Shown here in pieces: positions 4,568 through 28,702 of a DNA stretch of 61,763 nt. Position 1 is the first letter of the stretch; the number at the start of each line of letters is the position of its first letter. The position numbers were made by a program, and so were the translations under genes. This DNA comes from Candidatus Moraniibacteriota bacterium (GTDB taxonomy: Bacteria; Patescibacteriota; Minisyncoccia; Moranbacterales; UBA2206). Under the pieces are notes generated by a model. The model searched no databases, was not told the origin of the DNA, and saw only the letters and a program-made list of their open reading frames with translations. Location: assembly GCA_003543115.1 (NCBI GenBank), contig DPJH01000004.1, positions 1 through 61,763 of the forward strand, written 5' to 3'.

Positions 4568-5152
4568 ATGACAAAATATATTCTTCATGGTGGAGTGACA
4601 AGAGAAGAGAACAAGCTTAATCATGATTTTTTCTCGGAAATTGCCGGCAGTCTTGATGACGGGGACAGTTTGCTTTTGTGCTACTTTGCTCCTTCGATGA
4701 AGCGTGATTATCCGGAAAAAGAAAAGTTCGTAAACGGTGTTAAGCAGTTCGAAAGATATATGAATGGCAAGAAAGTGACGTATGTTTTTGCTGAAAGAGA
4801 GGATTTCATGCGGCAATTGAAAAAAGCTGAGGCCATATATGTCCATGGCGGAGACACGATCAAGCTCCTGGAAGATTTGAAAAAATATCCTGAATTTCCT
4901 GAGGAAATACGAAAGAAAAAGCTGGTGGTAGGAAGTTCGGCCGGAGCCTACGTTTTGGCAAAATATTTCATCAACTACTCGCATGAAAATGATGTTAAGC
5001 AAGGATTTGGCATATTGCCGATTAAAATATTCTGCCACTTCAAGGATGAACAAGGGGAGCTTTTAGAAGAAAAATTTAGAAAAGCAGATGAGGCGGGGGA
5101 ATTAGAAACTGTATTGCTCAGAGATTTTGAAATGAAGATTTTTGGAAAGTAA
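4568..5152 (+). CDS. Peptidase S51-like protein, paralog 2 (divergent)
   Basis: YVHGGDTIKLLEDLKK and VVGSSAGAYVLAKYF correspond to the S51 core motifs. Confidence 0.6.
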   Translation: MTKYILHGGVTREENKLNHDFFSEIAGSLDDGDSLLLCYFAPSMKRDYPEKEKFVNGVKQFERYMNGKKVTYVFAEREDFMRQLKKAEAIYVHGGDTIKLLEDLKKYPEFPEEIRKKKLVVGSSAGAYVLAKYFINYSHENDVKQGFGILPIKIFCHFKDEQGELLEEKFRKADEAGELETVLLRDFEMKIFGK

Positions 5153-5169
5153 ATTAATTTTTTTAAAAT

Positions 5170-6351
5170 ATGGATACTAAAGAAAAAGACAAAAAATATT
5201 TAGGCAGAGATATAGAGGCCGATCAATTGGAAATTGTCGGATCGGATGGCAGCCATCTTGTGGATGCCAAAGGGAAGAAGCATATTGATTTTCTGATGGG
5301 TTGGTGTGTGGGAAATATCGGCTGGGGAAATAATGAAGTTAGAAAAAGACTGAAAAAATTTACGGGTCCAGATTATGTCCTGCCTGGATATTTATACAAG
5401 CCTTGGGCTCAGCTGGCGGAAATGTTAGCCAAGATTACTCCAGGAAAATTAGAAAAAAGTTTTCGAGCAACTGGTGGAACAGAAGCGGTGGAAATCGCTA
5501 TGCAGGCGGCAATGATGCATACAAAGAGGCACAAATTTATCTCGATTGAGGGAAGTTATCATGGGCATTCTATCGGAGCAATGAGTATCGGGATGTCAGA
5601 ATTTCGGAAATGGTATAAAAATTTGCTTTTCCATTGCAATAAGATCGATACTCCGCTAGATGAAAAAGCTATCGTAAAAATAGAAAAGTTATTGGCGCAA
5701 AAAGACATTGCTGCCTTCATCGCCGAACCAATAGTTTGCAATCTCGGCATCGTGATGCCGGAGAGAAATTTTTGGCCAAAAGTGCAGAAACTTTGCAAAA
5801 AATATGGAACACTTTTTATTATGGATGAAGTAGCGACCGGATTCGGAAGAACGGGAAAAATGTTTGCGTCAGAGCACTATGACCTATCGCCGGATATTAT
5901 GTGTTTAGCCAAGGGCATAGCGGGCGGATATGGCGGATTGGGTGTTGCAATAATGACGAAAGAAGTCGCCAGGTCTATGGAATTTGATTTTAGTTTTTAT
6001 TCGACTTTTGGATGGCATCCGTTGGCAGTGGAGGCGGCGCTAGCTAATTTAGAATATTTGGATAAAAATAAGGAAAAAATTCTAAACAATGTTTTGAAGA
6101 TGGAAAAATATCTCCAAGAGCGTTTGAAAAAAATGATCTTCAAATATCCGGCAAAAATCAGGATCAAGGGATTGGCAATTGGAATTGAATTTGATGACGT
6201 GAAATATGCAGGAAAAATTGCAGAAAAATGCATGAAAAACGGATTGCTTGTGGCAACCCTCAATCGAAACATCATCACTCTTTTCCCAGCCTTGAACATC
6301 GACAAAAAAACAGCTAAAGCGGGGTTGGATATTTTGGAGAGATGTCTCTAG
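5170..6351 (+). CDS. Class III pyridoxal-phosphate-dependent aminotransferase
   Basis: GTEAVEIAMQ, FIMDEVATGFGRTGKMFASEHY and MCLAKGIAGGY (PLP-lysine region). Confidence 0.85.
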   Translation: MDTKEKDKKYLGRDIEADQLEIVGSDGSHLVDAKGKKHIDFLMGWCVGNIGWGNNEVRKRLKKFTGPDYVLPGYLYKPWAQLAEMLAKITPGKLEKSFRATGGTEAVEIAMQAAMMHTKRHKFISIEGSYHGHSIGAMSIGMSEFRKWYKNLLFHCNKIDTPLDEKAIVKIEKLLAQKDIAAFIAEPIVCNLGIVMPERNFWPKVQKLCKKYGTLFIMDEVATGFGRTGKMFASEHYDLSPDIMCLAKGIAGGYGGLGVAIMTKEVARSMEFDFSFYSTFGWHPLAVEAALANLEYLDKNKEKILNNVLKMEKYLQERLKKMIFKYPAKIRIKGLAIGIEFDDVKYAGKIAEKCMKNGLLVATLNRNIITLFPALNIDKKTAKAGLDILERCL

Positions 6352-9752: not shown

Positions 9753-9826
9753 TGGAGCATCGTTTTAATATGGCAAGACGGCAAAATTTGAATTTGCATT
9801 TCGGGGTTCGACTCCCTGTGCTCCAG
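9753..9826 (+). tRNA. tRNA-Gln (anticodon UUG)
   Basis: Hand-folded 74-nt cloverleaf. Acceptor tggagca/tgctcca (U1-A72, G73, as in bacterial tRNA-Gln). D stem gttt/agac with GG in the loop. Anticodon stem gcaaa/tttgc, loop a-t-TTG-a-a. T arm cgggg-ttcgact-ccctg. CCA is not encoded. Confidence 0.85.
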
Positions 9827-14499: not shown

Positions 14500-15123
14500 G
14501 TGAAAAATATTCATCCTTCTAATGCCCTTGAGGAAGGCTATTATGGCGTTGGCGGTTTCATATTAGAAATAATGAAAGTTTTTTTGTTGGCTTTGGTAAT
14601 AATTATTCCTATTCGAGTTTTTCTTTTTCAGCCTTTTTTTGTTCAAGGAGCTTCCATGGAGCCTAATTTTGAAAATAATCAATATTTGATTGTAAATGAA
14701 TTCGGTTACAAGAAAACTAACGTGGGAATCGGAGATAAGAATCTCTTTACCGTAGAGCCTTTCAAGGATTTGGAACGTCAGGAAGTGATTGTTTTTCGCT
14801 ATCCGAAAAATCCCAGCCAATTTTTTATTAAAAGAATAATCGCTCTTCCCGGGGAAAGGATGGAATTAAAAAATGGAAAGGTTACCATATTCAACCATGA
14901 GAATCCCGATGGATTTGTTTTGGATGAAAGCGGTTATCTTTCCACTTCCGTAAAAACGATGGGAGATATGAATATCACGCTTAAAGATAAGGAATATTTC
15001 GTAATGGGGGATAACAGGATGTTCAGTTCGGATTCTCGTTCTTGGGGGCCTGTCGCGGAAGAAAATATTACAGGCAAGGCTTTTGTTCGAGCTTGGCCTT
15101 TAAATAAGGTCGCAGTATTTTAG
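14500..15123 (+). CDS. lepB: Signal peptidase I
   Basis: GASMEPNF (Ser box), KRIIALPGE and GDNRMFSSDSRSWGPV. GTG start. Confidence 0.9.
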   Translation: MKNIHPSNALEEGYYGVGGFILEIMKVFLLALVIIIPIRVFLFQPFFVQGASMEPNFENNQYLIVNEFGYKKTNVGIGDKNLFTVEPFKDLERQEVIVFRYPKNPSQFFIKRIIALPGERMELKNGKVTIFNHENPDGFVLDESGYLSTSVKTMGDMNITLKDKEYFVMGDNRMFSSDSRSWGPVAEENITGKAFVRAWPLNKVAVF

Positions 15124-15157
15124 TTTCGGATATCTAATTTTAACTTAAAAGCTTAAT

Positions 15158-15195
15158 ACTTAGTTTTCCATTCCAGGGAGTGGAAAACCAAGATC
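15158..15195 (+). repeat. Leader hairpin related to the ribosomal-operon heptamer family
   Basis: acttagttttcca-ttccagggag-tggaaaaccaagatc: perfect 8-bp core gttttcca/tggaaaac. The right arm aaaaccaagatc resembles the CTAAGAAC-type arms. Confidence 0.5.
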
Positions 15196-15210
15196 ATAAA
15201 TTACATCAAT

Positions 15211-16662
15211 ATGGGTAAAGATAACAAGAAAATTGTAAAAAAGCTAAAACCTGCAAAATTAGTGAAAGCAACAAAGAAAGAAGTGGTTAAAGCTGTTAAA
15301 ACGGAAAGAAAAACTAAAAATCGCAAAGAGGCTGTTAAAAAAGAATTGGAACCGATTGTTTTACAAGCCCCGAGGGGCATGAAAGATATTTTGCCGGAAG
15401 ACCAGCCATATTGGGAGCAGACAAGGAGAGTAACGGAAAAATTAGCCAGAGATTATGGATTTTCTCGAATTGATACTCCTCTTGTGGAATTCAGCAATCT
15501 CTTCAATCGCAGTATTGGTGATGGAACAGATGTTGTGGAAAAAGAACTATATAGTTTTACTACTAAGGGCGGCGATAAAGTAGCTCTAAGACCTGAAATG
15601 ACAGCGGGCGTTGCCAGAGCCTATATCCAACACGGCATGAACGTTTTGGGAAAGCCGGTAAAACTTTTTTCTACCGGACATGTTTATCGTCATGATAGGC
15701 CTCAGGAAGGAAGGCAGCGGGAATTCTATCAAATCAATTATGAGGCTTTTGGCGAACAGGATCCGATTTTGGATGCGCAAATGATTCAAGTGGCAACAAG
15801 AGTGGTGCAAAGTTTAGGCATCAAGGCTGTTCAAATCCAAGTGAATTCAATCGGTTGTCCGGTTTGCCGCAAGGATTATAAGGATCTTTTAGTGAGTTAT
15901 CTTGAATCTAAATCCAATAAATTGTGCGTGGATTGCAAAAGAAGATTGGATGTGAATCCGCTTCGTGTTTTGGATTGCAAAGAAGACAAGTGCTCTCAAG
16001 TAGCCGCTTCAGCTCCGCAATCAGTCGATCACTTGTGCGAAGAATGCCGCGTTCATTTCAAGAATCTTTTGGAATATTTGGATGAATTGGATTTGCCGTA
16101 TACTATCAATCCAAGATTGGTTCGCGGATTGGATTATTATACCAAAACAGTTTTTGAAATTTGGTCCGGTTCGGAAGAGGGAAGAAAAAGCGCTTTGGGC
16201 GGAGGAGGAAGATATGACGGATTGGTAAAATTGCTGGGAGGAGAGGCTACTCCTGCGATCGGCTTTGCGCTGGGAGCAGAAAGGCTCATTATCGAAATGA
16301 AGAGAGTCCAGGCAAAATCTTATAAAGGATTGAAGCCAAAGATTTTTCTAGCCCAGCTCGGTGAGATGGCCAAGAAAAAGAGTTTGCGTCTTTTTTCAGA
16401 ATTGGAAAAGAATGGAATTTTGGTGGCGGAGAGCTTCGGACGAGGAAGTTTGAAATCTCAGCTTCGGGTAGCCAATAGATTGGGAGTGGAAATGACTTTG
16501 ATCTTGGGACAAAAAGAAGCGCTGGACGGAACGGTGATCATTAAAAACATGATCAGTGGAGAACAGGAGACAGTCAGTTCTGCCAAGCTGATTGACTTGG
16601 TAAAACGAAAACTGAAAAATGACAATGTGGTGGTTTATCATGATAACCACGATAACCATTAA
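15211..16662 (+). CDS. hisS: Histidine--tRNA ligase with a Lys-rich N-terminal extension of about 50 aa
   Basis: APRGMKDILP, LRPEMTAGVARAY, RQREFYQ and GGGGRYDGL class II motifs. Confidence 0.95.
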   Translation: MGKDNKKIVKKLKPAKLVKATKKEVVKAVKTERKTKNRKEAVKKELEPIVLQAPRGMKDILPEDQPYWEQTRRVTEKLARDYGFSRIDTPLVEFSNLFNRSIGDGTDVVEKELYSFTTKGGDKVALRPEMTAGVARAYIQHGMNVLGKPVKLFSTGHVYRHDRPQEGRQREFYQINYEAFGEQDPILDAQMIQVATRVVQSLGIKAVQIQVNSIGCPVCRKDYKDLLVSYLESKSNKLCVDCKRRLDVNPLRVLDCKEDKCSQVAASAPQSVDHLCEECRVHFKNLLEYLDELDLPYTINPRLVRGLDYYTKTVFEIWSGSEEGRKSALGGGGRYDGLVKLLGGEATPAIGFALGAERLIIEMKRVQAKSYKGLKPKIFLAQLGEMAKKKSLRLFSELEKNGILVAESFGRGSLKSQLRVANRLGVEMTLILGQKEALDGTVIIKNMISGEQETVSSAKLIDLVKRKLKNDNVVVYHDNHDNH

Positions 16663-18836: not shown

Positions 18837-20099
18837 ATGGCAAGTCGTGATATTGTTGTTGGCATTGATATTGGCTCAACGAGCGTAAGAACTGTGATTG
18901 CGCAAGTTTTTCCTGAAGAAGAGAAACCACGAATAATCGGGGTTGGTTTAAGTGCGTCTTCAGGAGTGCGAAAAGGAGTGATTGTTGATTTGGAAGAAAC
19001 CATAAAATCAATCAATGATTCGGTTGAGCGTGCGGAAAGGACGGCTGGGGTTGCGGTTAATCAGGCAGTGGTGAGTATTGGAGGCAGCCATATCACATCG
19101 CAAAATTCCAAGGGAGTGATTGCGGTCGGAAAGGCTGACGGAGAGGTAACCGAGAGTGATATAAATAGGGTCATAAATGCCGCTCAGGCAATTTCCATTC
19201 CCGCCAACAAAGAAATTATCCATATAATTCCTGAAAGTTATTCCTTGGATGATAATAAAAATATTAAGGATCCGTTAGGAATGAATGGCGTGCGCCTAGA
19301 AGTGGATGCCATTATCATCGAGGGATCGACTCCTTTTATTAAAAATTTAACCAAATGTTTTGAGCAAGCTCGCATCAATATTTCAGATTTTGTTTTGGCG
19401 CCGCTTGCAGCCACTAAAGCCACTCTCACTAAAAGACAAAAAGAGCTAGGTGTGGTTTTGGTAGATATCGGAGGAGGGACAACTTCAATTGCTGTCTTTG
19501 AGGAAAATAATCTTGTGCATACGAATATTTTGCCTATCGGAGGAAATCATATCACTAATGACATCGCCATAGGTTTGCGTACTTCAATTGATGTGGCAGA
19601 AAAAGTCAAGCTTGAATATGGAAATGCCTCTCCTAGAGAAATCAGTAAGAAAGAAGAAATCAACTTAGCTGAGATAGATGCCAATGAAGAGGGAATGGTT
19701 TCTCGTTATCATGTGGCGGAAATAATTGAAGCGAGATTGGAAGAAATTTTGCTGCTGGTCAATAAAGAATTAAAGGAAATTGGCAGAGAAAAACTTTTGC
19801 CGGCTGGCGCTGTTATCACCGGAGGCACGGCAAAACTGCCAGGAGTAGTTGATCTGGCGAAAAATATTTTAGGTTTGCCTGCGCAAACTGGTTTCCCTAT
19901 GCAAATGGGGGGGTTGATCGATAAAGTAGATGATCCAACTTTTGTGACCGCTGTAGGGTTGGTTTTGTGGGGATGGGAAAATATGTCAGTATCCAAATCG
20001 AGAGGGATAATTGATGGAAAATTGGGAGAAAGATTTTCAAGTAGCGTGGGAGGATCAATCGGAGGATTAAAAAAATGGCTAGGTAAATTTTTGCCATAA
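18837..20099 (+). CDS. ftsA: Cell division protein FtsA
   Basis: IVVGIDIGSTSVR, VLVDIGGGTTSIAVF; actin-like ATPase adjacent to ftsZ. Confidence 0.95.
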   Translation: MASRDIVVGIDIGSTSVRTVIAQVFPEEEKPRIIGVGLSASSGVRKGVIVDLEETIKSINDSVERAERTAGVAVNQAVVSIGGSHITSQNSKGVIAVGKADGEVTESDINRVINAAQAISIPANKEIIHIIPESYSLDDNKNIKDPLGMNGVRLEVDAIIIEGSTPFIKNLTKCFEQARINISDFVLAPLAATKATLTKRQKELGVVLVDIGGGTTSIAVFEENNLVHTNILPIGGNHITNDIAIGLRTSIDVAEKVKLEYGNASPREISKKEEINLAEIDANEEGMVSRYHVAEIIEARLEEILLLVNKELKEIGREKLLPAGAVITGGTAKLPGVVDLAKNILGLPAQTGFPMQMGGLIDKVDDPTFVTAVGLVLWGWENMSVSKSRGIIDGKLGERFSSSVGGSIGGLKKWLGKFLP

Positions 20100-20361: not shown

Positions 20362-21639
20362 ATGGCAGAAATAAAACCACCGGTAGAAACATTTGCTCGC
20401 ATTAAAGTCATTGGAGTTGGCGGTTCTGGAGGAAACGCAATTAGTCGTATGATAGAGGCTAAGTTTAAGGGTGTGGAATTTGTTGCGATCAATACGGATG
20501 CACAAGATCTGCATCACAATAAGGCTCAAGAAAAAGTCCATGTGGGAAAAAATTTGACCAAAGGATTAGGCGCAGGAATGAACCCGGATATCGGCCGTCA
20601 AGCAGCGGAAGAAAATCGCGATGAAATTCAAGAAGTAGTGAAAGGAGCTGATATGGTTTTTGTCACTTGCGGCTTGGGCGGAGGAACAGGATCGGGAGTA
20701 GCGCCGATTGTAGCTGAAGTGGCCAAGGAATCAGGAGCATTGACTGTAGCGGTTGTTACCAAGCCATTTGCCTTTGAAGGAGCGCAAAGAAGAGCTATCG
20801 CTGAAGAAGCTTTGGAAAACTTGCGTGAAAGAGTGGATACATTGATAACAATCCCAAATGACAAGCTGCTTCAAATTATTGATAAAAAAACAACCTTGAT
20901 CAATTCTTTCAAGATCGTTGATGATGTTCTTCGTCAAGGTGTGCAGGGAATATCTGATTTGATCACAAAGCCAGGAATCGTTAATGTTGACTTTGCAGAT
21001 GTGCGTGCCATTATGTCCAACAGCGGATCAGCCCTTATGGGAATTGGAATCGGATCAGGCGAAAACAGGGCGGCTGACGCTGCTAAAGCTGCTATAAATA
21101 GTCCGCTGCTCGAACTTTCTATCGATGGGGCGAAAGGAGTCCTGTTTAATGTCAGCGGTGCCTCTGATTTGACCATGCTTGAAATCAATGAAGCGGCTAA
21201 TATTATTACGGAATCAATCGATCCTAATGCGAAGGTCATTTTTGGAGCAGTAGTGGATGAAACAATCAAGAAAGGCGAATTGCAAATTACCGTAGTGGCC
21301 ACTGGCTTTGATGCGGACAAGGTAAAGGAATCTCCATTGGAAAAAATGTCAAGAATGTCCATAGCTCAATCAAAAGCTGTAGCTGGCGCTATTTCTCAGA
21401 ATAATAATGCTCACAATAATATTTCTGTTTTGAAAAACACTTCTCAACTGGAGAAAGAGGATGAAATCGAAGAGCCAAAAATAACTTTCCCTGAAAAGTT
21501 TGAATCCAGAATGATAATCAAGGAAAAGGTCCAGCCGAAACCCACTCGACCTGCTTTCAGCGCTATGGAAAAATCTTTGGAGGATGATGATAGCGAGCTT
21601 GAAATCCCGGCCTTCATCAGGAGGAAGATGGGGAAATAG
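20362..21639 (+). CDS. ftsZ: Cell division protein FtsZ
   Basis: [37 protein letters not shown] and the C-terminal [10 protein letters not shown] peptide. Confidence 0.97.
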
Positions 21640-21660
21640 AATTTCAAAACTTTTATAATA

Positions 21661-21697
21661 AAAAACACTGATATGAAATAATCAGTGTTTTTTATTT
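21661..21697 (+). terminator. Rho-independent terminator of ftsZ
   Basis: aaaaacactgat-atgaaata-atcagtgtttttt. Confidence 0.85.
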
Positions 21698-21774
21698 TTA
21701 TAGGCAGCTTTTAAATACAAGATTCTTGTTGTCAAGTTATGTCCCTTGAATAAATCGCTGCTTTTGCAATTTTA

Positions 21775-21783
21775 TGGTATAAT
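21775..21783 (+). promoter_or_regulatory. Extended -10 promoter element TGGTATAAT
   Basis: tggtataat sits 33 nt before ATG 21816. An identical block lies upstream of the next paralog. Confidence 0.5.
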
Positions 21784-21815
21784 AAAATCAATTAAAACAA
21801 ACTTAAAAAAATACT

Positions 21816-23762
21816 ATGCAAAACAAAAAACTAAAAGCTATCATTCTGGGGTCGCTCTCAATTGCTTTGTTTGTGGCGACATATGTAGCGATAAGCAATA
21901 AAGCAGGTAACAAGAGGTCAATCACAGACCAGCAAGAATTGTCTCAAGGTAAAGAGGCGGACCAAGGGTTGTATAAACAAGCTTTGGATGAATATGATGT
22001 CAGGATGTGCGAACAGATAAGCGATGAATCAATAAAAAACAATTGCTTGGCAGCAATTAGAAATTCGAAACCGACGGTGGGTCAGATGATAATGTTATCC
22101 CAGAAGGGAAACTATTCATTTAATGAAGATGATTATGCCGATAGATCGATTGAATTTCTGGAAGATTTTTTAAGGAGCAATCCTAATGACGTTGATGCTC
22201 TCATTGGTATGGGATATGCCTATGAGACAAAAAGGGATTATGTCAAAGCTTTGGAATATTATAATAAGGCTCTTAATCTTAACTTAGAGTATGCTGCAAC
22301 ATATAATCGGATAGGGCATGTCTATGATTTGATGGATGGGGCGAAGAAGGCAGAGTCATATTATAAGAAATCTTTAGAAATCCAGCCAGACTATCTTGAC
22401 CCCAGTTTAAATTTGGCGAGGATTTATTATCGCAGAGATGAGGTTGAAAAAGCTAGGATTTATTTTGAAAAAGCTTATTCAAATCCCGGTGTCAACAACA
22501 GAACCAAGGCCGAAATCGGGTATTTGTTTTCAATAATCAGTCTTGATGCAGGTGATTTAGCTAAAGCTAGGTCTTATGTGGATCAGGCAGTTAAAGATGA
22601 CCCTTCTTTTCCTATGGGATGGGTTGGGAAAGGTCAGGTGAGATTTTCTGATACCAAAACAGCAAAATCTCTTCAAGAAGCAGAGGCGATGTTAGCTGAG
22701 GCGCTTTCCTATTTTGATAAAGCGATAGCGCTTAATAAGAATCAAACATTCGCATATTTGAATAAAGGGAGAATATTGAGTGCAGTAGGAAGGACACAGG
22801 AAGCTGTAGACAGCTTTAAGCAGGCTAAAAATATTCTCAGTCAAGACACGACTTTAATGGGAGATGAAAAAAAGATAGTCGAAGATACTCTTAATAGGCT
22901 CTTGTTGGCAACAGGAAAAACATCTTTCTTTAATGGCCTATTCATTGAAAACGTTTATGCAAGTGATGATTATCAAGATGCTTTCAATTGGTGGGTTGAT
23001 AAAGTTCATGAGCAGCTTCCTGATAGACCTGGACACACTTGGGTTATTCAAGGCACTACAGCAGTGTGTGTTCCAAATGGAGCTACGGTTGGTTTCACAT
23101 ATAATCCGCCTGCACCTTGTGCTCCATCTTGGGGGGCATGGGGTTCTTGCAACTGTTCGACGGGAAAACAATCGAGGTCGGATGGCTGTGGCGGTTCTGA
23201 AACGCAAGACTGTTCTTGTGATGGAGCTTGTGGAACGGCTAGCGACTCGCCTAATTATTCTGCTGAAGCATCATTTCCTGGATCCCGTACTACTTGTAAT
23301 CCAGGTACAGCAAACGATTGGTCAAACTCCAGCCATGATCCGCAAGTGGGAGGATCTGTTAGCTGGATATGTCTTGGGGTAAATGGCGGTCGTTCAAGTG
23401 GCACGTGTGTCGCAAATAGAGATTATTACCAGTGCAGAAATTCAAGCTTGCCAAGCAATTCCATAGCTTGTCCCATAGGTGGCAATCAGGTAGCTTCATC
23501 TGCTAATGCTAATTATGTCCTGGCAGAATCTTGTAGCGGCAATAGCACGAGATGCGAATCCAAATGCAATGACTCCCAAGGAGGCCAGTGCGGTAATCGG
23601 GTCTATACTTATCGTAATGGCTCTTGTCAAGTCTGCACGCCGAACTGTTGCGAGAAGAATACCTGTATCGGACAGAGCTGCGATAATGGATGCGGCAACA
23701 GCGGCGTAAGCGGAATCAAGGATTGTCGCAATGAAAACTGGCAGGAAGTGAGTCCGAATTAA
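21816..23762 (+). CDS. Signal-anchored TPR + TSP1-like + Cys-rich module protein (paralog 1)
   Basis: Basic N-terminus plus one hydrophobic helix. TPR-like repeats (ALIGMGYAYETKRDYVKALEYYNKALNLN...). APSWGAWGSCNCSTGKQSRSDGCGG (degenerate TSP1). Cys-rich C-terminal third ending KDCRNENWQEVSPN. Confidence 0.8.
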   Translation: MQNKKLKAIILGSLSIALFVATYVAISNKAGNKRSITDQQELSQGKEADQGLYKQALDEYDVRMCEQISDESIKNNCLAAIRNSKPTVGQMIMLSQKGNYSFNEDDYADRSIEFLEDFLRSNPNDVDALIGMGYAYETKRDYVKALEYYNKALNLNLEYAATYNRIGHVYDLMDGAKKAESYYKKSLEIQPDYLDPSLNLARIYYRRDEVEKARIYFEKAYSNPGVNNRTKAEIGYLFSIISLDAGDLAKARSYVDQAVKDDPSFPMGWVGKGQVRFSDTKTAKSLQEAEAMLAEALSYFDKAIALNKNQTFAYLNKGRILSAVGRTQEAVDSFKQAKNILSQDTTLMGDEKKIVEDTLNRLLLATGKTSFFNGLFIENVYASDDYQDAFNWWVDKVHEQLPDRPGHTWVIQGTTAVCVPNGATVGFTYNPPAPCAPSWGAWGSCNCSTGKQSRSDGCGGSETQDCSCDGACGTASDSPNYSAEASFPGSRTTCNPGTANDWSNSSHDPQVGGSVSWICLGVNGGRSSGTCVANRDYYQCRNSSLPSNSIACPIGGNQVASSANANYVLAESCSGNSTRCESKCNDSQGGQCGNRVYTYRNGSCQVCTPNCCEKNTCIGQSCDNGCGNSGVSGIKDCRNENWQEVSPN

Positions 23763-23790
23763 AAAATATTTTTTCACTTCCAATAGCCAT

Positions 23791-23824
23791 AAAAAACGCT
23801 GATTCCATGTCAGCGTTTTTTTAT
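23791..23824 (+). terminator. Rho-independent terminator
   Basis: aaaaaacgctga-ttccatg-tcagcgttttttt. Confidence 0.85.
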
Positions 23825-23889
23825 TTTAATTTTTGGTAATGTTATTTCAAGTTATCCCCATTGGCTAAAGTGCTGCTTTTGCAATTTTA

Positions 23890-23898
23890 TGGTATAAT
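23890..23898 (+). promoter_or_regulatory. Extended -10 promoter element TGGTATAAT
   Basis: Same conserved block as at 21775. Confidence 0.5.
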
Positions 23899-23930
23899 AA
23901 AACCAATTAAAACAAACTTAAAAAAATACT

Positions 23931-25967
23931 ATGCAAAACAAAAAAATAAAAGCTATCGTTTTGGGATCGCTTTCAGTCATCCTATTCATAGCGACATATG
24001 TGGTGATAAGCAATAAATCAGATGAGAAGAAACAAATTGCAAATCAACAAGGACTATCTCAAAATAAAGATGCATCACTGGAAAAAGAGACAGACTTAAA
24101 TTTGTATAAACAAGCTTTGGACGAATATGACGTTAATTTATGCAACAAGATAAAAAATGAATCAAAAAAATCAGAATGTTTTTCGGCAATCCAAAATTCA
24201 ACTCCTACCCTAGAGCAAGCCATTGCATTGTCCCAAAAGGGAAGTTATAATTTTCAAGAAAAAGATTATGGACAGAGAGCCGAGAAAATATTCCAGAGCA
24301 TCTTAGAAAAAGACAAGGATAATTTAAATGCTTTGCTTGGTATGGGATATGCTTATGAAATAATGCAAGACTATGAAAAAGCTTTGTCATACTACAATAA
24401 AGCTTTGGCTTTGGCTCCTAAGAATGCTGCTGTCTACAATAGAATAGGACATATGTACGATTTGAGCGAAGGGATGGAGAAGGCGGAGTCATTTTATAAA
24501 AAATCTTTGGAGCTTAATCCTAATTTCCTTAATGCTAAAATCAATCTAGCTAGAGTTTATCTAGGTCAAAACAAAAATAAAGAAGCGGCGGATATATTAT
24601 TGGAAGCGTATGTCAGTCCGGACATGAATGCCAGGACCAAGGCTGAAGTCGGTTATATTTTATTTGCAAATGCTTTTGATAAAGGTGAATACGATCTTGC
24701 AAAAAAATATATAGATGAAGCCATGGCGGCGGATAATAGTTTGCCGATAGTGTGGGTTGGAAAAGGCATGTCCGTTTTTTCTGAGATAAAAAAGCTATCT
24801 TCGCCTGAAGGCACTCAAAAGATATTCGAGGAATCTCTTGGTTATTTTGATAAAGCGGCACAAATATATCCATATCAGACAGCAGCATATTATTGGAAGG
24901 GAAGGATTGTGCTGGCAGCGGGAGATAAGGCAAGCGCAGAAAGCCTGTTTAGGACGGCGCTGGAAGTTATTGAAAAGGATATAACCTTGATGAAGGATCA
25001 AAGAGCAATGTTTAAGGGAGAAATTGAGGGATATATGGCACAGGCTAAGGTATCGATAGACTATAAAAAGAAGTCTTTTATGGATAATATCTTTATACAA
25101 ACTGCTCAAGCCGCTACATGCTGTAGCTATTGGGGCTATAACAGCAAAGGACAGTGGGTAAATCATAATTCTTGTGTTACATGGTGTACTACTCAGGCAC
25201 AGGTAAACAACATTTATAATGAATTGGTGGCATTGGTCAACAGCAGCGATCCAAAACATAAGGCTAAGGTTTCTGGCAATACAGTTACATGTAATAATGG
25301 CAATTCGGCTACTTATGTGCCGATTGACAATCCTGCTCCTTCATGCAGTCCAAGCTGGGGAGCATGGGGAGCTTGCAGCAGGACATGCGGAGGAGGCACT
25401 CAATCTCGGGGGGATGGTTGCGGTGGTTCACAAAGCCAGGCATGCAATACGCAAGCGTGTATCGAGGACGGCGCCTGTGGAACAAATGTCAACACTTATG
25501 CAGCAGCAACATCAAATTGGCCAAGCTCCAATACTGTAGATTTTTGCTCTGAAGGAGCTGGTGTCAGAGGAGGTGGTACGCCTGTTTTTCCGAATCCGGG
25601 AGCGTCAGTTGACTGGTTTTGTTCTGGATCAAGTGGCGGAAGAGACAGTGATATTTGCACTGCATCAAGAGAATATTATCAATGCAATGGGACTTTTGCT
25701 CACGCCAATTCCTGTTTAAACGATAGAGCCAATCTGACAACTCCTACAAATTCAATTTTAACTGATTCCTGCGAGGGATCCCGCCAATGTAAGTATGTGT
25801 GCGATGCTAGCCAGGGATATCAGAAACAAGGCCAGTCATGTGTCTGTACTCCGTTTTGCGCAGCTCAAACTTGCATAGGACAAAAATGCAGCGATTGCGG
25901 AGGAAGCAATCAAGATGGCACCAAAGATTGTCGCAATGAAAATTGGCAGGAAGTGAGTCCGAATTAG
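23931..25967 (+). CDS. Signal-anchored TPR + TSP1 + Cys-rich module protein (paralog 2)
   Basis: Same architecture as paralog 1. SPSWGAWGACSRTCGGGTQSRGDGCGGSQSQACNTQAC fits the W-x2-W-x2-CS-x-TCG-x-G-x-Q-x-R TSP1 signature. Same C-terminal tail KDCRNENWQEVSPN. Confidence 0.85.
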   Translation: MQNKKIKAIVLGSLSVILFIATYVVISNKSDEKKQIANQQGLSQNKDASLEKETDLNLYKQALDEYDVNLCNKIKNESKKSECFSAIQNSTPTLEQAIALSQKGSYNFQEKDYGQRAEKIFQSILEKDKDNLNALLGMGYAYEIMQDYEKALSYYNKALALAPKNAAVYNRIGHMYDLSEGMEKAESFYKKSLELNPNFLNAKINLARVYLGQNKNKEAADILLEAYVSPDMNARTKAEVGYILFANAFDKGEYDLAKKYIDEAMAADNSLPIVWVGKGMSVFSEIKKLSSPEGTQKIFEESLGYFDKAAQIYPYQTAAYYWKGRIVLAAGDKASAESLFRTALEVIEKDITLMKDQRAMFKGEIEGYMAQAKVSIDYKKKSFMDNIFIQTAQAATCCSYWGYNSKGQWVNHNSCVTWCTTQAQVNNIYNELVALVNSSDPKHKAKVSGNTVTCNNGNSATYVPIDNPAPSCSPSWGAWGACSRTCGGGTQSRGDGCGGSQSQACNTQACIEDGACGTNVNTYAAATSNWPSSNTVDFCSEGAGVRGGGTPVFPNPGASVDWFCSGSSGGRDSDICTASREYYQCNGTFAHANSCLNDRANLTTPTNSILTDSCEGSRQCKYVCDASQGYQKQGQSCVCTPFCAAQTCIGQKCSDCGGSNQDGTKDCRNENWQEVSPN

Positions 25968-25996
25968 AATTGAAAAATATTTTAAGCCTGAAACAA

Positions 25997-26030
25997 GAAA
26001 AGCTGATTATACGAATCAGCTTTTCTTTTA
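25997..26030 (+). terminator. Rho-independent terminator
   Basis: aaagctgatt-atacg-aatcagcttttc tttt. Confidence 0.8.
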
Positions 26031-26115
26031 AATTGCGTATAAATATTAAATATTGGAATAATTTTTTTATTAAAAAATGTTATAATAAAATCAGTTAAAA
26101 TATATAAAAAATAAA

Positions 26116-27015
26116 ATGGAAAGAAAAAAGAATAAAAAATTTTTCATCATAATGTTCATTCTAATTGTTTTCTTTGCAGTAAGTTATATGATTTTGAAGA
26201 ATAAAATGGATGGTGATGAGCAAGTTGCAAGCCAGAGAAAAGAACTACCAAATAAAAAAGTAGCCCCTCAATCAGAAAGAATAGCATGCGACACTTATTC
26301 TTCTGAGAAAGAAGTTATGGAAAGCGCTATAAGCACCGGCAACGAGAAAATATGCAGCTGTGTTAGGGATAAAAGCTTTAAGGATGCATGTCAAGGTGTT
26401 GTTTTGGATCTGAATTTGTATAGTCAAGCCTTGAGGGGACATGATGAAAATTTGTGCAATGAAATGGTCAGTGAGTCAAGAAAATCTGCCTGTTTTGCAG
26501 CAGTGAAAAATTCAATTCCTGATTTATATAAAAGCGACGTAACCCAGTGGTCTTCTTGTGAGAATGGAAAGCAGCTGGCTATGAATTGGACAAACAAAAC
26601 TAGAGACGGAGGAGAGAATGAAGATATAGACTTAACAAGAGATTGCAATGGAAAATGCGGAACAGCTAATGCAAAGGAATATAATGCGACTGATTCCAGC
26701 TTTGGCGAATTTCAGCCTTGCGCCGTAGGAACTTCTAATCCCTCTAATCCTTTTCCGGAGCCAGGGAATAACAACACTTGGATTTGTGAAGGATTGGATG
26801 GAGGAAGAAATAGCGAGAATTGTGTAGCATCAAGAAAATTTTATACATGTAGCGGAGATTTCCCTAATGCAACGCCTTGTTCTGGCGATAGCGGTGATCT
26901 GATAGTGCCCACAAAGTCAATTTTGGTCGATTCTTGCAATGTCAATCAGAAATGTAAATATGTGTGCGATTCTAGCCGGGGATATCGCAGACAGAATAAT
27001 ATATGCGTTAAATAG
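26116..27015 (+). CDS. Signal-anchored Cys-rich module protein (paralog 3, lacks TPR and TSP1 parts)
   Basis: N-terminal TM helix. Shares the Cys-pair module (NLYSQALRGHDENLCNEM...SACFAAVKNSIP) and the C-terminal module (KCGTANAKEYNATDSSF...TWICEGLDGGRNSENCVASRKFYTC...KCKYVCDSSRGY) with paralogs 1 and 2. Confidence 0.8.
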   Translation: MERKKNKKFFIIMFILIVFFAVSYMILKNKMDGDEQVASQRKELPNKKVAPQSERIACDTYSSEKEVMESAISTGNEKICSCVRDKSFKDACQGVVLDLNLYSQALRGHDENLCNEMVSESRKSACFAAVKNSIPDLYKSDVTQWSSCENGKQLAMNWTNKTRDGGENEDIDLTRDCNGKCGTANAKEYNATDSSFGEFQPCAVGTSNPSNPFPEPGNNNTWICEGLDGGRNSENCVASRKFYTCSGDFPNATPCSGDSGDLIVPTKSILVDSCNVNQKCKYVCDSSRGYRRQNNICVK

Positions 27016-27136
27016 TGGTGGTTAGAAGAGTGTTTGTATAGAACAGCAACAACTCCTGTGGTTTCCTGGTTTGATTGGATTTGGAACTACAATGGAGCAG
27101 CGGTAGATGCTTTCGATGATGCTTTGAATTGAAAAA

Positions 27137-27265: not shown

Positions 27266-27928
27266 ATGGAAAAATTAACATCCAAACAAAAAATGATCTT
27301 AGATAAGATTCGAGAAATAATTGATCAAGAAGGAGGAAACCCGACCGCCTATAAGCTCCATAAATATCTTGAGAGCCAAGGAATTGAGTCAGGCAGCTTG
27401 AAAGGAACAATGCAAGTGATTGAAGCCTTAGAAAAAAAAGATCTTGTGAAAAGGGATGAATCAAAGAAATTATTTTTGGTGGAAAATGACAATTATGCCA
27501 ATTTTGAAAATATATTTTCTATGCCGATGTATGGCTTAGCTTCGTGCGGAGAAGCTTTGGCATACGCTGATGGCAATGTGGATGGATATCTTCAAATTTC
27601 CAAGAGTCTTTTTAGGAAGGCTGATCCAGCTAAACTTTTTGCAGTGAAAGCTTTGGGAGATTCAATGAATAAAGAAGGGATTGGCGATGGAGATTATGTA
27701 GTATTTGAAAAATGCGAGGATTGTGATTGCGAAGGAAAGATTGTAGTAGCTGTAATCAATGGCATGGCCACAATTAAGCGGTATAAAAAACTTCCGCACG
27801 GCATGATAGGTCTTTTTCCCCAATCAACCAATAAAATCCATCAACCCATATACCTGGATGAAACAGATGCAATTCTCGTGGCGGGCGTGTTTCGCAAGGT
27901 TCTTCCAGTGGCTTTTGTAAGTTTATAA
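27266..27928 (+). CDS. lexA: LexA-like repressor (winged-helix + S24 peptidase)
   Basis: N-terminal LTSKQKMILDKIREII...; C-terminal AVKALGDSMN...GDYVVFEK...VVAVINGMATIKRYKK (Ser/Lys dyad region). Confidence 0.85.
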   Translation: MEKLTSKQKMILDKIREIIDQEGGNPTAYKLHKYLESQGIESGSLKGTMQVIEALEKKDLVKRDESKKLFLVENDNYANFENIFSMPMYGLASCGEALAYADGNVDGYLQISKSLFRKADPAKLFAVKALGDSMNKEGIGDGDYVVFEKCEDCDCEGKIVVAVINGMATIKRYKKLPHGMIGLFPQSTNKIHQPIYLDETDAILVAGVFRKVLPVAFVSL

Positions 27929-28246: not shown

Positions 28247-28702
28247 ATGAATTGTCCTTTTTGTAACTACACGGAGACAAAAGTAGTTGATTCGCGAGAT
28301 ACCAATGAAGGAAAAATAACTCGTCGAAGGCGCGAATGCATAAAATGCGAAGGAAGATTTTCAACTTATGAAGAAATAGAGCTCTTGCGGCTATCTGTTC
28401 TCAAAAAGAATGGACAGAAGGTTGATTATGATAAATCAAAGATCGAAACTGGAATTCGAAGAGCTTTAGTGAAAAGACCAATAACTGAAGATCGTACGAT
28501 AAAGCTCTTGGGAGATATAGAATATGCCATCAAATCACTAGAAAAAACAGAGGTAACAAGCAAAGAGATCGGCAAGATAGTGCTAAAAAAATTGAGAGAT
28601 TTGGATGAAGTGGCTTATGTAAGATTTGCGAGTGTCTATAAATCATTTGGAAGCGTAGAAAGCTTTAAAAAGGAATTGGATAAATTGGACATGAATAATT
28701 AA
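28247..28702 (+). CDS. nrdR: Transcriptional repressor NrdR
   Basis: MNCPFCNYTETKVVDSRDT...RRRRECIKCEGRFSTYE zinc ribbon plus ATP-cone. Confidence 0.95.
   Translation: MNCPFCNYTETKVVDSRDTNEGKITRRRRECIKCEGRFSTYEEIELLRLSVLKKNGQKVDYDKSKIETGIRRALVKRPITEDRTIKLLGDIEYAIKSLEKTEVTSKEIGKIVLKKLRDLDEVAYVRFASVYKSFGSVESFKKELDKLDMNN

Follow-up and report, generated by a model that had tools for sequence, protein, structure and literature searches.

A tandem array of predicted membrane-anchored, cysteine-rich proteins in the variable ftsZ-nrdR interval of a Candidatus Moranbacteria genome

Three paralogous genes downstream of ftsZ

The DNA analysed here, referred to as the window, is the 61,763-nt contig DPJH01000004.1 of the Candidatus Moraniibacteriota assembly GCA_003543115.1. 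Three genes of the + strand lie 3' of ftsA (18837..20099) and ftsZ (20362..21639) and are called P1 (21816..23762; 648 AA, 27 Cys), P2 (23931..25967; 678 AA, 29 Cys) and P3 (26116..27015; 299 AA, 18 Cys). They probably (we estimate about 0.6) encode tandemly duplicated, independently transcribed, membrane-anchored proteins exposed at the outer surface of a cell of the Candidate Phyla Radiation (CPR), in a hypervariable island between ftsZ and lexA/nrdR. The favored interpretation is that they serve in surface binding or as scaffolds. CPR bacteria presumably live in attachment to other cells, through molecules that are largely unknown. An initial annotation, made from the letters of this DNA, had placed the three genes at exactly these coordinates and had attributed them to a reduced, probably episymbiotic genome. 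The relatives of the FtsZ protein identify it as a reduced CPR genome, since all of them (up to 90% identity) belong to metagenome-assembled genomes of Candidatus Moranbacteria/Moraniibacteriota or of the Parcubacteria group.

The proposed organization, going outward from the membrane, would start with a disulfide-stapled helical hairpin followed in P1 and P2 by a superhelix of seven tetratricopeptide repeats (TPR), which may serve as a protein-docking platform. Further out would lie a Cys domain called CCSYW, a short thrombospondin type-1 repeat (TSR), intact only in P2, and two disulfide-bonded β-rich modules, modA and modB. A Cys-knot ending in W-Q-E-V-S-P-N-COOH would be the outermost part of P1 and P2. 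The anchor and the TPR array would keep the protein attached to the membrane and attract partner proteins, and the distal Cys-rich modules would bind external ligands (envelope polymers, or the surface of a host or partner cell). The module cassette may diversify by duplication, module loss and shuffling, with promoter, anchor and terminal peptide conserved, under the cell-surface selection that would be expected for contact proteins of an episymbiont.

Predicted membrane anchor, Cys-pair module and TPR array

Each paralog contains a single hydrophobic 19-mer (residues 8-27; Kyte-Doolittle maximum 2.3-2.95, reached at residues 8-9 only) with 3-5 Lys/Arg ahead of the helix. These putative signal-anchor helices (P1, residues 8-26, 21837..21893; P2, 23952..24008; P3, 26140..26196) suggest a type-II (N-in, C-out) membrane topology. 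An extracellular location is also consistent with the invariant and covarying Cys residues of the distal modules described below, which support it indirectly. The anchor is followed by a helical module with a Cys pair (LYKQALDEYDV..C...........C), found at residues 52-87 of P1 (21969..22076; repeat D2), 58-93 of P2 (24102..24209) and 101-136 of P3 (26416-26523). The N-termini of P3 and P2 are clearly related (BLASTP E 1e-14), and P3 carries in addition an insert of its own, a Cys-pair-like segment at 26305-26409.

P1 and P2 continue with a TPR array (22125..22922 and 24258..25055, respectively). Pfam TPR families score far above their gathering cutoffs (TPR_2 in P1, 67.1 bits versus 27; TPR_19 in P2, 61.8 versus 25) and have no match in P3. 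The AlphaFold2 (AF2) model of residues 110-375 of P2 is a superhelix of 14 helices forming seven hairpins, with a predicted local distance difference test (pLDDT) score of 80-95. Foldseek aligns it to consensus TPR and O-GlcNAc transferase (OGT) superhelices of the PDB (E 2e-12 to 2e-9) and also to Tom71. The basic N-terminus with one hydrophobic helix, the shared Cys-pair module and the TPR repeats of the first two paralogs, all proposed in the initial annotation, are thus recovered.

The best NCBIfam similarities of the TPR region are to PilW, PrsT, MamA, Tgl and GltE (40-63 bits). None of these named families reaches its equivalog cutoff (154-312; best score 62-63 bits), and the similarity is only that common to TPRs in general. 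P1 and P2 would share with such envelope scaffolds (PilW/PilF, Tgl, GltE, MamA, PrsT) an N-terminally anchored, extracytoplasmic array of about seven TPRs. However, these scaffolds lack the Cys-rich C-terminal cassette (the PilW score is 62.5 bits versus a cutoff of 154), and no pilus or gliding genes were seen among the annotated genes around the array.

A search with the 395 N-terminal residues of P2 identified full-length relatives, P0157, P0158 and P0159 (51-60% identity), together with two anchored homologs composed of TPRs only, P0160 and P0161 (32% identity). P0157-P0159 have no N-terminal Cys-pair module. They keep the anchor, the TPR array and the CCSYW domain (CCSYW...NHN.C..WCTTQA...SGNTV.C.NG.SATYVPI), after which a Pro-rich linker leads to a different cassette. 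In P0157 and P0158 it is composed of modA, an Ig-like region and a TSR-like knot (C..ECGGG) with the end SEWKEV[RQ]P, and in P0159 of modB and an Ig-like region with a different end. Two further loci place TPR anchors next to Cys-module genes. In L089 (8950-10829) the stop of P0160 (10005) overlaps the start (9987) of a gene for a secreted modA protein with variant 'CGSAN' repeats. In L085 (10001-14431) P0159 is followed by a 787-AA homolog (E 2e-48) of the island protein of L004 described below. Some genomes thus encode the TPR anchor and the Cys modules in one protein and others in neighboring genes, so that the two are likely to be functionally linked. P0159 and its 787-AA neighbor are 54% identical over their last 100 residues and have TTDIVENRRPQ as their common C-terminus, so that a second shared end exists besides W.EV.P. 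The L089 contig also includes a DsbA/thioredoxin-like gene (4661-5440).

A short thrombospondin type-1 repeat in P2

The initial annotation placed a TSR after the TPR array. A TSR-like segment is indeed present, but a further domain between the two had been overlooked. This CCSYW domain occupies 25110..25325 in P2, is conserved in P0157-P0159 and has a decayed counterpart in P1 (22956..23108).

The TSR-like repeat of P2 (25341..25460) is 40 AA long. Its core, SCSPSWGAWGACSRTCGGGTQSRGDGCGGSQSQACNTQAC, joins W-x2-W to CSxTCGxGxQxR and it includes six Cys (positions 472, 482, 486, 497, 505 and 510). In isolation the segment scores 21.4 bits against the Pfam profile TSP_1 (PF00090; E 2.9e-4; profile positions 3-37 of 49 covered), and matches the spondin and ADAMTS TSR models more weakly. 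The TSP_1 score drops to 15.2 bits within the 284-AA C-terminal half of P2. No TSP_1 was reported in the Pfam scan of full-length P1, P2 and P3, and the P1 segment and P3 are also without a match.

A hidden Markov model (HMM) built from the P2 module and four bacterial relatives was compared to all PDB sequences, and all 44 matches are TSR-bearing (44/44). The best is thrombospondin-1 (5.8e-10); F-spondin (2.3e-5), MIC2 (2.9e-5), TRAP (8.6e-5), CSP, isthmin, properdin and ADAMTS13 are also matched. The module shows the W-x2-W, the C-S-x-T-C-G-G-G-x-Q-x-R and the terminal C-N-x-Q-x-C of the thrombospondin-1, F-spondin, TRAP and MIC2 repeats, as well as the six Cys, including one ahead of the Trp motif, of the TRAP/F-spondin type, and like them it is found in a presumed extracellular context. 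It differs from them by its bacterial (CPR) host, by its length (40 AA compared to about 55, in a canonical range of about 50-60), the stretch from the Arg strand to the last Cys pair being absent, and by a single Arg after CGGG in place of the R-x-R ladder. We conclude from these comparisons that the P2 segment can be regarded as a genuine but shortened TSR, devoid of about 15 central residues, and it would document a compact bacterial form of this repeat.

The corresponding segment of P1 (23115..23219) is homologous to the P2 repeat by paralogy. It retains W..W..C, QSR and DGCGG but has lost TCGGG, and represents a decayed copy; P3 has a vestige at most. The array of three TSR genes initially proposed is therefore reduced to one intact repeat supported by the PDB profile comparison, one decayed and one at best vestigial copy.

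TSRs are rare even among relatives, and the elements that prevail in the conserved parts are instead modA, modB and the C-terminal peptide described below, which the initial annotation had not distinguished. A word-index protein search with the C-terminal 284 AA of P2 gave three matches only, all through the TSR. They share exactly the 40-AA module W..W..C...CGGGTQ[ST]R....CG......CNTQAC, and one of them, P0001, has a precomputed PF00090 match. A word-index search using the TSR alignment returned only seven TSR fragments of 66-70 AA and did not recover the seed proteins themselves. In addition, residues 805-856 of P0081, a modA-bearing protein found among the global modA-family matches, form a canonical-length TSR, which indicates that both long and short forms occur in the modA-bearing protein family.

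TSRs are overwhelmingly eukaryotic, and the module profile matches thrombospondin-1, TRAP, MIC2 and CSP. These two observations would fit a recent acquisition from a eukaryote, the proteins then mimicking animal or apicomplexan matrix adhesins for a eukaryotic host. We nevertheless consider such an origin very improbable and reject it. The repeat is a distinct 40-AA form in which the middle part of eukaryotic TSRs is missing, and the proteins closest to it (48-63% BLASTP identity) are other secreted proteins of prokaryotic type, one of them with a dockerin domain. Neither its GC content nor its context is foreign to the genome. Moreover, it is intact in one of the three paralogs only and is absent at that position from the other family members.

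The modules modA and modB

The C-terminal region shared by the paralogs (43% identity between P3 and P2 over 127 AA, E 8e-29) had been described in the initial annotation as a second Cys-rich module, in a system that could not be assigned to any described family. It is common to all three proteins, but corresponds to two modules plus a tail element that is absent from P3. One modA and one modB are detected by module HMMs in each of P1 (23220..23423, 4 Cys; 23424..23636, 6 Cys, with an insertion), P2 (25467..25673; 25674..25847) and P3 (26647..26838; 26839..27012). P3 therefore consists of the anchor, two Cys-pair modules, a vestigial linker, modA and modB, without TPR, CCSYW or tail. It is in effect a P2 without its central TPR/CCSYW/TSR part and its last 40 residues, and with an extra Cys-pair-like insert.

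No Pfam or NCBIfam model exists for modA or modB, in agreement with the initial annotation. The modules are however far from being orphans. When 1.84 billion representative proteins were scanned in full with HMMER, the C-terminal regions of the three paralogs matched 503 proteins at E<=1e-3 and 140 at E<=1e-10, which rules out the orphan status of the C-terminal half of P2 suggested by the three matches of the word-index search. The two parts of the profile, positions 1-69 (modA) and 71-127 (modB), find their matches independently of each other, and a single protein can have up to 22 matching stretches. Of the 154 top-match proteins scanned, 139 contain modA, with 531 occurrences in total. An N-terminal hydrophobic signal is present in 109 of the 137 top matches that start with Met. 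Pfam domains found together with modA/modB include PKD, cohesin and the pilin N-methylation motif.

Many of these proteins are unnamed, secreted, Cys-rich arrays from CPR and other uncultured bacteria (22 copies in P0009). They are built of the same units as P1-P3, with the common patterns CG.A...Y...C..G...P..G...W.C.G..GG...C.A.R for modA and C.G..P.NA..C.GD..GL....LV..C...KCEY.C..GY...G..CV for modB, and in relatives they occupy the same genomic island. Unlike these arrays, P1-P3 carry a single copy of each module and a predicted signal anchor in place of a cleavable signal peptide, and P1 and P2 are fused to TPRs.

In a 66-row alignment the four Cys of modA are invariant (48/48), while Cys2 and Cys3 of modB are both present in 26 rows, both absent in six and never mixed. 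This joint presence or absence constitutes a disulfide signature. The AF2 model of the P3 modA+modB region obtained from this alignment (mean pLDDT 96.9) predicts two small β-rich domains. The best match of the modules in BFVD is A0A6J5SE33 of an uncultured Caudovirales phage (29% identity over 72 columns, probability 0.91), which is not significant (E 0.3). This phage protein may carry a related module; a scan of viral contigs for modA/modB was negative.

A conserved C-terminal peptide

P1 and P2 terminate in a Cys-knot followed by a short peptide (23637..23759 and 25848..25964, respectively; WQEVSPN-COOH at 23739-23759 and 25944-25964), their common end being ...KDCRNENWQEVSPN. In the closest relatives the same genomic position is taken by proteins of different architecture, which nevertheless end in ...NWREVAPN (L002) and ...NWKEVNPN (L004). 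Among 10,069 stop-to-stop open reading frames (ORFs) of the window and 80 related loci, nine end in W.E[VIL].P plus 0-3 residues; all nine are Cys-rich and lie on the + strand, and by a rough estimate less than one would be expected by chance. When global matches and TPR-family relatives are included, W[KRQ]E[VI]xP-COOH is found in 19 distinct proteins (P1, P2 and 17 other Cys-rich proteins), always 0-2 residues from the end.

The peptide recalls the LPXTG/sortase and PEP-CTERM/exosortase signals in being a short C-terminal motif present on diverse secreted proteins of one lineage. In those signals, however, a hydrophobic helix and then a basic tail come after the motif. Neither is found after W[KRQ]E[VI]xP, where the protein ends 0-2 residues past the Pro, and there is no match to the NCBIfam sorting-domain models. 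A signal of the sortase or CTERM type is thereby ruled out. The peptide may represent a new way, apparently without a sortase signal, of holding proteins on a cell that has no outer membrane.

Three separate transcription units

Stable hairpins located between A and U tracts follow ftsZ (around 21657-21696), P1 (23791..23821), P2 (25995..26027) and P3 (27132..27165). Their folding energies range from -15.7 to -21.5 kcal/mol, with z-scores of -5.7 to -7.6 relative to shuffled sequences. A 38-nt box covering promoter and 5' untranslated region (UTR) precedes each of the three genes (21774..21811, repeat family D4, for P1; 23889..23926 for P2; 26077..26114, with TGTTATAAT, for P3). The P1 box is 97% identical to that of P2 and 79% identical to that of P3. 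With its own extended -10 promoter, its own terminator and the shared box, each gene forms a separate transcription unit, and the three derive from one another by duplication.

The terminator hairpins of each gene and an element identical in the first two had been noticed in the initial annotation, and both observations hold. The latter, TGGTATAAT, is an extended -10 promoter element located 33 nt 5' of the P1 and P2 start codons (21775-21783 and 23890-23898). It occurs seven times in the window (16136, 21775, 23890, 28097, 30593, 42158 and 45521) compared to 0.54 expected from shuffled sequences, and is probably a general strong-promoter form of the host genome.

P1 and P2 are 95-97% identical in the promoter and 83-91% in the tail (91% at the DNA level; repeat D6), compared to about 50% in the gene interior. 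Such well-kept ends around a variable cassette are compatible with gene conversion as well as with a strong constraint.

The ftsZ-nrdR interval is a variable island

The array lies between ftsZ, the upstream boundary of the island, and nrdR (28247..28702), its downstream boundary. The interval also includes a LexA-like Peptidase_S24 gene (27266..27928), which is found within it in many relatives. We compared 45 loci that show ftsZ as well as nrdR. The distance separating the two genes ranges from 68 bp to 9 kb: it is shorter than 500 bp in 17 loci, measures 0.5-2 kb in 10 (mostly with lexA alone) and exceeds 2 kb in 18. In 14 of these 18 large intervals there are genes for proteins of 364-1346 AA that carry modA, modB or the tail and differ widely in the order of their domains. 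This variation in length and content indicates that the interval is a hotspot for variable surface-protein genes, whose content is not tied to cell division, and where Moranbacteria would swap surface proteins. It also supports the variable surface system suggested by the initial annotation, whereas the host attachment considered there is conjectural.

No other locus in the collections searched has the 6.6-kb version of the window (P1, P2, P3 and lexA). P1 and P2 form singleton clusters at 90% identity, and identical copies were recovered from the same aquifer population only. An independent assembly of this population (L081, Logan SRR6486110 contig) starts 15 nt 5' of P2. Its break at the duplicated promoter and 5' region of P1/P2 illustrates how paralog arrays fragment short-read assemblies.

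The location of P1-P3 immediately 3' of ftsA-ftsZ and on the same strand could point to accessory factors of cell division or of the septal wall, the more so as a tail-bearing ORF lies inside the ftsZ-nrdR interval in seven of the eight loci that have one (window counted). Such a role is very unlikely and is largely refuted by the absence of the genes from close relatives: nrdR follows ftsZ within 500 bp and without such a gene in 17 of the 45 loci, and mostly lexA alone separates them in 10 more. Where the island is occupied, its proteins differ completely in architecture between relatives, and the TPR-family relatives are located away from ftsZ, beside recG or Band_7 genes. Furthermore, ftsZ has its own strong terminator and each paralog its own promoter.

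Decay raises a different question. The TSR and CCSYW segments of P1 are degenerate, P3 lacks the central half and one public assembly breaks at the P1/P2 repeat, as could be expected from non-functional duplicated DNA or from an assembly artefact. We reject this explanation, the least probable of those considered. The three ORFs are intact and equipped with promoters and terminators, all Cys residues of the modules are kept, P2 and P3 were recovered identically from independent samples, and P0015, an ortholog of P3 with about 82% identity, keeps the same end.

Other occupants of the hotspot have features of their own. In L036, two ORFs (204 and 263 AA) that are not Cys-rich are located at 14515-15898, between the two giant Cys-rich genes of the island. 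They could be a pair of the toxin-antitoxin or abortive-infection type, which would hint at a use of this hotspot by mobile elements as well. The island proteins of L002 (4786-7695) and L004 (4475-6964) start with a cleavable signal peptide and a domain of about 430 AA. Two hydrophobic helices with a basic loop between them form the center, and the Cys-rich half comes last. With this arrangement, both halves would lie outside the cell. No direct repeats flanking the island were found in the window. Two scans of JGI metagenome contigs with poorly chosen peptide patterns found no relatives.

Possible surface binding and display of Cys-rich proteins

Several observations weigh against the assignment of P1-P3 to surface binding. 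The topology is predicted solely from hydrophobicity and the positive-inside rule, and the odd Cys counts of P1 (27) and P2 (29) imply that not all Cys are disulfide-bonded. The P2 repeat falls 0.2 bits short of the TSP_1 gathering threshold (21.6) and is 15 residues shorter than a canonical TSR. In the AF2 model of full-length P2, obtained from a seven-sequence alignment, pLDDT is below 50 over residues 376-678, which include the TSR. The modA+modB model has no PDB match in Foldseek (best E 2.2, template modelling score <0.25); to consider these modules as having no known fold is provisional, since the power of Foldseek is limited for domains of about 60 residues. No module of P1-P3 has a characterised homolog. 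Finally, the TPR-fused architecture is very rare, being limited to five proteins in differing genomic contexts.

The main rival interpretation gives the TPR array another role, without being exclusive of surface binding. P1/P2-type proteins could be scaffolds for envelope assembly or surface display, whose extracellular TPRs would capture the W[KRQ]E[VI]xP-COOH end of secreted Cys-rich proteins and tether or polymerise them. The ligands would be terminal peptides of the DCRNENWQEVSPN type, including those of P1 and P2 themselves, by analogy with the EEVD-COOH peptides bound by Hop and Tom70 or the PTS1 peptide bound by PEX5. This interpretation would account for the peptide being located at the extreme C-terminus of 19 otherwise different Cys-rich proteins, for its being the best-conserved coding part of P1 and P2 (91% DNA identity) and for the absence of any hydrophobic segment after it, which sets it apart from the sortase/CTERM type. 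Four of the five TPR-family members carry the peptide, P0160, an anchor with TPRs only, shows translational coupling to a secreted modA protein, and the TPR model resembles peptide-binding TPRs such as Tom71. However, 15 of the 19 tail-bearing proteins have no TPR, P0159 has a TPR but no such tail, and the neighbor of P0160 ends at a contig edge so that its tail is not visible. We thus regard the display scaffold as a tentative proposal, clearly less probable than surface binding.

The analogy with Hop, Tom70-71 (EEVD-COOH) and PEX5 (PTS1) lies in the combination of a TPR superhelix with a short peptide at the extreme C-terminus and is drawn from co-occurrence alone. In P1 and P2 both elements would be extracellular and may belong to the same polypeptide, and the peptide is W[KRQ]E[VI]xP rather than EEVD or SKL. 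A bolder form of the proposal, which we hold to be rather unlikely, would make W-[KRQ]-E-[VI]-x-P-COOH a new C-terminal docking signal of secreted proteins of CPR bacteria (Moranbacteria/Parcubacteria), with the TPRs of the P1, P2 and P0160 type as receptors. Interchangeable modA, modB and short-TSR modules would then be displayed non-covalently and independently of sortase. If so, P1 and P2, which hold both receptor and signal, could self-assemble head to tail.

Relation to known protein families

Parts of P1-P3 map to known kinds of proteins: TPR scaffolds, TSRs and modular secreted proteins. The short bacterial TSR, modA/modB together with CCSYW, the terminal peptide and the ftsZ-nrdR hotspot are not covered by Pfam, NCBIfam or PDB as searched. 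Among them, modA and modB stand out as abundant small disulfide modules, absent from Pfam/NCBIfam, confidently folded in the models and without a Foldseek match to solved structures. The description of all these elements as new relies on domain libraries and general knowledge; a largely incomplete literature search returned only papers on thrombospondin type 3 repeats, which are not relevant.

Additional features of the window

In P1 and P2 the stop codon lies only about 28 nt from the terminator. The TAG stop of P3 is followed in frame by 38 sense codons (27016-27132; WWLEECLYRTATTPVVSWFDWIWNYNGAAVDAFDDALN) with a TGA just 5' of the terminator. This stretch could be a 3'UTR element or what is left of a C-terminal, exon-like cassette that was lost. 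The P3 stop is not recent, since P0015 likewise stops directly after modB. The Rfam scan of the window gave a single match, a tRNA at 9753-9826, far from the locus. All 2-kb blocks of the 61.8-kb window show a positive GC skew, and around the locus the + strand carries nearly all of the long ORFs. The uniform skew and the near-uniform strand suggest that the window lies inside one replichore.

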